Of a DNA stretch of 64,000 bases, positions 9,326-9,683 are shown piece after piece. A program made the translations under genes and the position numbers. Numbering within the stretch: the first letter of the stretch is position 1; each line of letters starts with the position of its first letter. The notes under the pieces were generated by a model. The model worked only from the letters and a program-made list of their open reading frames with translations, did not search any database and had not been told where the DNA came from. Origin of the DNA: Octopus vulgaris (lineage: Eukaryota); NCBI GenBank assembly GCA_951406725.2, contig OX597825.1, positions 82,336,001-82,400,000 on the forward strand. The letters run 5' to 3'.

Positions 9326-9683
9326 CATACCTCGCTCAGATATTTATTATTGTTTGTTTACACTTTTTCGGGATCGGTGACTTTTCGTCACTGGAAAAAG
9401 GATTTATATATATTCACATTGGGCACCGCTTCACTTCGACAAACGGTGATTGTCACACGCTGATGACAGGTCAATAGTCAGAAACTCGAGTCTGTGTGTA
9501 TCAAGTCAGGTTGAAGACGGGAAGGATGGCTTCCCTTTGCAAATACTGATAGGGCACGAAAGTGTGTCAATAGGCAGCTGGAGGATATGTCCTCCTGGGG
9601 CTACAATCTATAGTAGCATCCACCCTTAAGGGTTAGCCAAATTTAAGTGGTAAATATACTTCACGATGTCGTGCAGCTGGCGT
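9326..9683 (+). mobile_element. Retrozyme-like element family 1, copy 1
   Basis: Colinear homology to 25003-25384 and 30146-30482 (ccctttgcaa, cctggggcta, tagcca blocks); contains an HHR. Confidence 0.75.
9454..9498 (+). ncRNA. Type I minimal hammerhead ribozyme motif
   Basis: cacacg-CTGATGA-caggtcaatagtca-GAAA-ctcgag-TC-tgtgtg. Stem I is 6 bp, stem III is the palindrome ACTCGAGT, GUC site; stem II is weak. Confidence 0.75.

Follow-up and report, generated by a model that had tools for sequence, protein, structure and literature searches.

A short non-coding repeat family of Octopus vulgaris combining predicted type I hammerhead motifs with a Penelope-like insertion pattern

BLASTN and profile searches across the 64-kb stretch of Octopus vulgaris DNA analysed here (hereafter the window) revealed a repeat family of about 356 nt, devoid of open reading frames and present in four copies. 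The window is microsatellite-rich and gene-poor and contains many dispersed repeats of 100–300 bp, and a whole-window repeat search was dominated by the microsatellites; all evidence on the family comes from four loci within one 64-kb window. Beyond copies 1–4, nhmmer returned no match below E = 3 across the window (best E-value in a reversed-window control, 0.74), and two BLAST fragments (23110–23135 and 33324–33353) were dropped as family members as nhmmer did not recover them. The unit was defined as 356 nt because an identical 26-nt direct repeat stands at both ends of copy 2 (25003–25028 = 25359–25384). Map positions refer to a doubled unit (1–712) derived from copy 2, with some piece ends adjusted by eye from the alignments. 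Unit GC content is 0.43–0.45. Pairwise identity over aligned columns amounted to 171/322 for copies 1 and 2, 197/293 for copies 2 and 3, and 207/302 for copies 1 and 3.

Copy 1 (9327–9678, + strand) comprises about one unit (doubled-unit 44 to ~394), with its 5′ end uncertain between 9320 and 9331; it carries no inverted piece, and a search at its ends for a target-site duplication (TSD) found none. Copy 2 consists of a forward strand of 382 nt (25003–25384, +), equivalent to the 356-nt unit plus the 26-nt terminal direct repeat, and of an inverted piece (24899–25004, −; doubled-unit 321–426) joined to it head-to-head with a 2-nt overlap at the inversion junction. All 106 nt of the inverted piece occur unchanged in the doubled unit, across the unit junction, and both pieces run into (TA)n, within which a TSD is unreadable. 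The main strand of copy 3 (30124–30426, −; ~303 nt) extends from unit 62–80 and is accompanied by a head-to-head, tail-bearing inverted piece (30423–30481, +; doubled-unit 366–426). This pair is regarded as a single insertion event because it is bracketed by an exact, A-rich 12-bp TSD (30112–30123 on the left and 30483–30494 on the right, both +), a length of at least 12 bp being reached by 0 of 3000 random position pairs. Copy 4 has a strongly 5′-truncated main strand without ribozyme (20537–20611, −; doubled-unit 297–378), preceded on its upstream side by a short piece that repeats its 3′ end in tandem (20612–20643, −; 29/29 identical to the main strand, ending at ~372), and an inverted piece (20644–20672, +; 28/29 identical). 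Its main strand was recovered by nhmmer at E = 1.8e-5 and matches copy 3 at 54 of 78 positions (0/2000 shuffles), and a TSD search at this locus found none.

Copies 2–4, thus three of the four loci with copy 1 as the exception, are head-to-head pairs with their 3′ ends pointing outward, and display a main strand together with an inverted piece and tail. An assembly artefact was rejected as an explanation because copies with 33% divergence show the same arrangement and because copy 3 carries a TSD. The divergence between copies is 31–47% (53–69% alike), whereas repeats internal to a copy are nearly identical (106/106, 26/26, 29/29 and 28/29), and we therefore conclude that copies 2 and 4 are young despite the divergence between copies.

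What varies among the pieces is mostly the point of 5′ truncation. The 3′ ends of the main strands lie at unit 377–382 (site A), except for that of copy 1 at 394, and copies 2 and 3 have inverted pieces that share their last base, unit 426 (= 70; site B), about 45 nt from site A, so that a tail of ~45–48 nt stands at the inverted end of both copies. The inverted piece of copy 4 departs from this two-site pattern, as its 3′ end (~369) lies near A and not B. Only 102 of 200000 random draws placed the 3′ ends of four main strands in an 18-nt arc as observed, and 8 of 200000 placed those of all eight pieces within 58 nt, although pieces from a shared locus depend on one another. No clustering was seen for the 5′ ends of the four main strands (42984/200000). 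Those of all eight pieces occupy an arc of 135 nt (1761/200000), which is due in part to short pieces beginning close to their own 3′ ends. Regarding the targets, copy 2 lies in (TA)n and copy 1 adjoins (TA)n. In copies 1 and 2 the tail block is joined to the next block in the same register, and all eight pieces fit a single linear 426-nt stretch with one ribozyme.

The preliminary description of this DNA had presented copy 1 as a circular permutation of the copy 2 monomer, starting about 45 nt into copy 2, about one monomer long, and ending at 9683 in sequence homologous to the start of copy 2. Both start and length were borne out: copy 1 begins at unit position 44 (9327; 9320–9365 aligned to 25003–25100 at 21/28, with 1/2000 shuffles as high) and covers ~350 nt (doubled-unit 44–390). 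Near its start, the site-B (tail-end) block at 9331–9352 (+) matches the copy 3 inverted piece at 20 of 22 positions. A continuous alignment of copy 1 with a head-to-tail dimer of copy 2, which had been expected, does cross position 356 (dimer 44–418, 234/396 identical; BLASTN HSP 9327–9657 to dimer 44–371), but the gain from the dimer is small, with a score of 168 compared to 161 for genomic copy 2 plus flank, only 7 points more, and a BLASTN HSP that is the same against the plain 382-nt genomic copy 2. The dimer adds little because copy 2 is itself terminally redundant and 9648–9664 matches the end of copy 2 colinearly.

The claimed homology at the other end of copy 1 held in part. By the description's own account it was to be given up if 9635–9683 did not align significantly to the start of copy 2, and no significant alignment was found: against 25003–25073 the segment scored 16, a value reached by 794 of 2000 shuffles, which averaged 15.5. 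Copy 1 extends past the usual 3′ end only by a 14-nt stretch of tail beyond site A (9665–9678, +), which agrees with copy 2 (25025–25038) at 6/14 (p = 0.15) and with the copy 3 inverted piece (30434–30447) at 11/14 in fixed register (p = 9e-5; local score 33, 0/2000 shuffles). Through the copy 3 piece, which itself aligns to the start of copy 2 (46/61, 0/2000 shuffles), the homology of the copy 1 tail does hold, if indirectly. It stops at 9678 and not at 9683; the next 22 nt match in register at 5/22 and 7/22, and a weak extension to 9705 in the dimer alignment, equalled by 255 of 2000 shuffles, was rejected on these grounds. Joining the end of copy 1 to its own start gave a flat score ridge, with a gap of 0–10 nt from exactly one unit. 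The permutation of copy 1 is real but small, with a start at unit 44 and an end 14 nt past the usual 3′ end, at neither site A nor site B, and its shifted start does not by itself show copying from a circle. Its near-unit length is weak evidence because the copy is without TSD and inverted piece, its structure is decayed and trimming is possible; copy 1 may have been trimmed after insertion and is the weakest witness of the four. On its own, the permutation is a weak and partly misread clue.

Several other features surround the copies. Directly left of copy 1, an imperfect palindrome with long matching arms (9089–9307, 83% over 218 nt) lies in a (TA)n run, and this MITE-like element may have disturbed the left flank of copy 1. 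The right flank (9679–9960) is unique in the window; its end at 9929–9960 resembles what we take to be a mariner-type terminal repeat, for which no partner end was found. Just left of the (TA)n run at copy 2 lies an element (24465–24857) ending in a GC-rich hairpin plus CTAG, its end recurring at 58518–58595, and by these features we presume it to be Helitron-like. The copy 2 region is also flanked by an 85% identical direct repeat (24197–24374 and 25438–25615), each part following a (TA)n run. Elsewhere, a large inverted duplication (~12350–14860 and ~17390–19890) with a 1490-nt core of 100% complementarity may be a very recent duplication or an assembly artefact. Several SINE-like families of 140–190 bp and 75–91% identity are abundant across the window, with examples at 1798–1938, 25677–25840, 32707–32862, 34144–34302, 42733–42884 and 48273–48435.

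Judged from sequence, copies 1, 2 and 3 each hold a type I hammerhead motif, which the preliminary description had overlooked. A descriptor scan for type I hammerheads with a 6-nt palindromic helix III and a helix I of at least 6 bp matched 9444–9506 (+) in copy 1, with a C3-G8 core at 9460 and a predicted cut after 9492; 25158–25221 (+) in copy 2, with a U3-A8 core and a predicted cut after 25207 (unit 205); and 30281–30343 (−) in copy 3, again with a U3-A8 core. The strict descriptor matched none of 60 shuffled windows, and a looser form gave 0.23 matches per shuffle. All three motifs retain the 3-8 pair, the GAAA box and a UH cleavage site, and helices I and III are present in 3/3 copies; in copies 2 and 3, helix II consists of 3 bp above a mismatch at its base, and in copy 1 it is broken, and the 10.1-11.1 position is mismatched throughout. 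In the three-row alignment, 53 of 57 cells are paired and 8 of 19 pairs are changed on both sides (0/500 shuffles as high; slid controls, 16–50% paired), the compensatory changes including the shift from C3-G8 in copy 1 to U3-A8 in copies 2 and 3 and three different palindromes. As this covariation rests on three related sequences and on a structure named by the analyst, we regard it as supportive and not as a probability. C3-G8/U3-A8 covariation is known from Schistosoma PLE (Penelope-like element) ribozymes, and dimers formed via the palindrome have been described for metazoan ribozymes of this type (PMC4209133); predicted cofolding here likewise favours a dimer through the helix III palindrome.

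An Rfam search of the window yielded no hit at gathering score. Hammerhead_HH9 (RF02275) aligned to copy 2 over the whole model with 19 bits (E = 0.0085) against a gathering score of 52. The E-value matches of copy 1 were to CRISPR and snoRNA models and were dismissed as chance only, with no hammerhead match among them, and copy 3 returned nothing in this search. A covariance model built from the three ribozymes detected no further member in the window, the next best matches (E = 0.21) being simple repeats. A fourth hammerhead-like motif (61945–62001, −; core at 61992) with U3-A8, a 4-nt palindrome and a long A/U helix II is unrelated to the family in sequence and was missed by the family covariance model; it may belong to another PLE-type family or be a chance match, given the 0.23 loose matches per shuffled window. 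Upstream of it lies a 46-nt direct repeat with 280-nt spacing (62377–62421 / 62657–62702).

Two predicted hairpins flank the region between the sites. The hairpin just 3′ of site B, at 9363–9400 (+) in copy 1 and present in copies 1–3, is a candidate RT-binding element; 97% of its cells are paired with three double changes, a value that is suggestive only, as 41 of 500 shuffles were as high. The 3′ hairpin directly upstream of site A (9634–9653, + in copy 1) is present in all four copies with 92% of cells paired, its covariation not being significant (255/500). Modelled folding of the whole unit gave z-scores of about −5 for copy 2 and about −6 for copy 3, and of −1.3 to −1.6 for copy 1, no better than shuffles (60 shuffles each).

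A coding function of the repeat was rejected, as stops occur in all three sense frames from the ribozyme to site A in copies 1–3, and a Pfam scan over the copies gave no match at cut-off. ARAGORN found no tRNA, leaving a SINE head unsupported. Prokaryotic genome contigs yielded 0 matches in a pattern scan, in keeping with an animal origin of the element. Concerning a partner enzyme, 554 stop-to-stop frames of at least 55 aa were extracted from the window, of which 213 passed a complexity filter; 207 of these and two long ORFs were scanned against Pfam, the remaining six frames lying inside the second arm of the near-identical inverted duplication. The scan yielded one LINE-type RT fragment, three other weak matches below cut-off and no GIY-YIG domain; accordingly, no autonomous PLE, that is no ORF combining RT and GIY-YIG, was found in the window. 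The RT fragment, an open 280-aa frame at 51773–52615 (+) with a C-terminal RT part (RVT_1, E = 4.6e-5) and DUF6451, is probably the 3′ end of a LINE and was rejected as the partner enzyme, its best PDB matches being R2 proteins (E~0.002).

Taken together, we consider it probable that the family is a non-autonomous Penelope-like/retrozyme-type retroelement primed at fixed internal sites, a judgement that leaves aside any circular step. PLE insertions are described as carrying an inverted 5′-truncated copy and a 30–40 bp tail at one end and as targeting microsatellites (PMC8557442), with TSDs of 8–10 bp and head-to-head junctions (PMC3846280). Frangieh et al. showed that AT-rich DNA is nicked and extended on both strands by a Poseidon protein, whose reverse transcription starts at two internal sites enclosing the tail and depends on RNA that lies downstream of these sites (PMC11167929). 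We read sites A and B as RT start sites because the ends cluster and because of this Poseidon biochemistry. The element would be a non-coding RNA of ~356 nt with a type I hammerhead motif, followed 170–220 nt downstream by a hairpin-tail-hairpin region to which a PLE RT/GIY-YIG protein supplied in trans may bind. This protein would nick AT-rich DNA on both strands and, by two-strand target-primed reverse transcription, prime cDNA at sites A and B, and two variably 5′-truncated cDNAs joined head-to-head would give the main strand, the inverted piece with its ~45-nt tail and the long TSD. On this view, the permuted appearance of copy 1 would come from a 3′ terminus that lies 14 nt inside the tail, with the 5′ terminus roughly one unit further upstream.

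The form of the template is a separate matter. A cut linear monomer is excluded because three long copies read through the predicted cut at unit 205, and 0 of the 8 pieces have a 5′ end within 10 nt of it. We lean towards an RNA circle, cut and re-ligated by the ribozyme and copied for at most about one turn, as the most likely single option, held at somewhat less than an even chance. It would agree with the retrozyme-type ribozyme anatomy and size, with the strong predicted folding of copies 2 and 3, and with long strands of 382, ~350 and ~303 nt, or 0.85–1.07 units; moreover, mussel repeats of 350–390 bp give circRNA, and circular RNA derived from retrozymes has been demonstrated in coral, mussel and axolotl (PMC7229834). 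Against it stand the lack of multimers in the window and the findings on uncut RNA and ribozyme mutants in the one reconstituted PLE system, given below (PMC11167929). The preliminary description had gone further and inferred a circular or rolling template from different entry points on one circular map. Such free entry with rolling copying and arbitrary permutations accords with the sequence being continuous across the unit junction and with copy 1 lying within about 10 nt of one full turn, and rolling reverse transcription of circRNA is a published retrozyme hypothesis (PMC7229834, PMC4209133). Continuity across the junction and the retrozyme-like character of the unit stand, but the entry-point logic does not, because the entry point of reverse transcriptase is the 3′ end, and it is the 3′ ends that cluster (102/200000 for the four main strands). 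There is also no sign of rolling, multimer-making copying, since no locus in the window has two ribozymes; the longest strand measures 1.07 units, and the direct comparison of 9635–9683 with the start of copy 2 failed. We therefore disfavour this version as very improbable.

A further candidate template, which involves the same element and the same priming and would need no circle, is a terminally redundant linear RNA of at least 426 nt, transcribed from a tandem source locus and left uncut; we judge it somewhat unlikely. It is compatible with all eight pieces fitting doubled-unit 1–426 with one ribozyme and with the organisation of PLEs as partial tandems (PMC8557442); in the reconstituted system of the anole Poseidon element, uncut linear RNA was the dominant substrate in vitro, and ribozyme mutants still inserted (PMC11167929). 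However, no tandem source lies in the window, and such a transcript gives no reason for long copies stopping near one unit. It also leaves unexplained the retention, with compensatory changes, of a cleavage-type ribozyme by a unit that has no ORF, a point tempered by the fact that autonomous PLEs pose the same puzzle. The start of the copy 3 main strand at unit 62–80 would instead agree with a linear RNA of about one unit having a fixed 5′ end just after B (unit ~72), on which RT re-primes at B to place a short second piece in tandem upstream, in the manner of the partial tandems classically known from PLEs, so giving the apparent permutation. In copy 4, the short piece that repeats the 3′ end in tandem and immediately precedes the main strand fits this as well, as does the 12-nt spacer after B, which agrees at only 3/12 between copies 1 and 2 (p = 0.036 against a 55% background). 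Yet two separate events, in copies 1 and 2, would have to yield the same gap-free register, and the RNA that the Poseidon RT needs downstream (PMC11167929) would here be the unit's own 5′ hairpin, which leads back to a tandem or a circle; we consider this re-priming unlikely. The weights attached here to the circle, the uncut tandem transcript and the re-primed unit-length RNA are our own estimates.

Alternatively, the copies could be 5′-truncated pseudo-LTR ends of several autonomous PLE subfamilies and not an independent small element. Most PLE ribozymes are indeed single motifs from truncated elements (PMC4209133), and the copies are only 53–69% alike, yet each internally young (106/106, 26/26, 29/29). 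However, the tail of copies 1 and 2 leads into the unit's own 5′ part and not into an ORF, stops occur in all frames, and the helices are of the canonical retrozyme type without the long helix II of minimal PLE ribozymes (PMC4209133), so that we regard this origin as quite unlikely. Returning to the independent element, the full reading of the copies as single-turn cDNAs of a ribozyme-made circle of ~356 nt, primed by PLE machinery on both strands at two fixed sites opposite the ligated junction, is offered tentatively, as it is at present a possible rather than a probable account. If true, it would represent a genomic footprint of PLE machinery moving a retrozyme and of circRNA serving as a retrotransposition template, and the 53–69% similarity with internal youth would fit fast evolution at the RNA level.

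Both ideas appear only as hypotheses in PMC7229834, PMC4209133 and preprint 10.64898/2026.07.22.740005, so far as these sources were available to us. Circular RNA as RT template is a published hypothesis (PMC7229834, PMC4209133), PLEs are named only as strong candidates for moving retrozymes (PMC7229834), and the preprint adds PLE co-occurrence and phylogeny for retrozymes. In a literature search at title and abstract level, with most subscription journals outside its coverage, we found neither a description of the family in work on octopus hammerheads and cephalopod retrozymes, nor permuted or inverted retrozyme copies, nor a retrozyme-like unit bearing the tail and inversion of a PLE insertion. 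The family bears on two questions, namely the enzyme responsible for moving animal retrozymes and the use of their circular RNA as template: a retrozyme-like unit here shows an insertion footprint specific to PLEs, in which two start sites can be mapped next to flanking hairpins. Such a unit of 356 nt would provide a minimal substrate for PLE assays in vitro, and the family lends itself to a clear genome-wide test of circle versus line.

Comparison with metazoan non-LTR retrozymes (Cervera and de la Pena 2020, PMC7229834) revealed agreement in the type I hammerhead with a 6-bp helix I plus distal stem, a short helix II and a 2-bp helix III with palindromic loop, in the 356-nt unit (mussel, 350–390), and in a GC content of 43–45%, the lack of an ORF, a TSD longer than 4 bp and the strong predicted self-pairing of copies 2 and 3. 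The unit thus falls within the retrozyme size range of 150–450 bp with GC below 50%, and Hammerhead_HH9 spans copy 2 including distal helix I, but with 19 bits vs 52. Unlike metazoan retrozymes, the family forms no tandem array in the window, with one ribozyme per locus at three separate loci, and it has a mismatch at the helix II base and a U3-A8 core in 2/3 copies. As at least two ribozyme units in tandem are expected and none were found within the 64-kb window, we do not file the copies as active retrozymes. Solo retrozyme monomers have been described, with a PLE origin proposed (Li et al., 10.64898/2026.07.22.740005), whereas head-to-head inverted pieces with a tail are undescribed for retrozymes in the parts of PMC7229834 and of this preprint available to us.

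These latter features are shared with EN+ PLEs (Penelope/Poseidon, Neptune; PMC8557442, PMC3846280, PMC11167929, PMC4209133), which have a hammerhead in the terminal repeat and an inverted 5′-truncated head-to-head piece, a one-end tail, two fixed internal 3′ ends and AT-rich or (TA)n targets, and a long TSD, partial tandems as in copy 4 and high divergence between copies; the U3-A8 core variant also occurs in Schistosoma PLEs (PMC4209133). Differences from EN+ PLEs comprise the missing RT/GIY-YIG ORF, a tail leading back into the unit and not into an ORF, a tail of ~45–48 nt compared with 30–40 bp (PMC8557442), a distance from the predicted ribozyme cut to the first start site of ~173 nt compared with ~85–90 nt in Poseidon (PMC11167929), and a helix II shorter than in minimal PLE ribozymes (PMC4209133). 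Non-autonomous Chlamys PLEs such as MRC1 offer a further parallel as ORF-less derivatives with pLTRs and head-to-tail insertions; their host is a green alga, and the parallel is drawn from their published description (PMC8557442). Unlike the octopus family, PLEs with an N-terminal EN (Naiad, Chlamys) lack canonical hammerheads according to the same source. Overall, the element resembles a non-autonomous PLE in its workings and a non-LTR retrozyme in the build of its unit.
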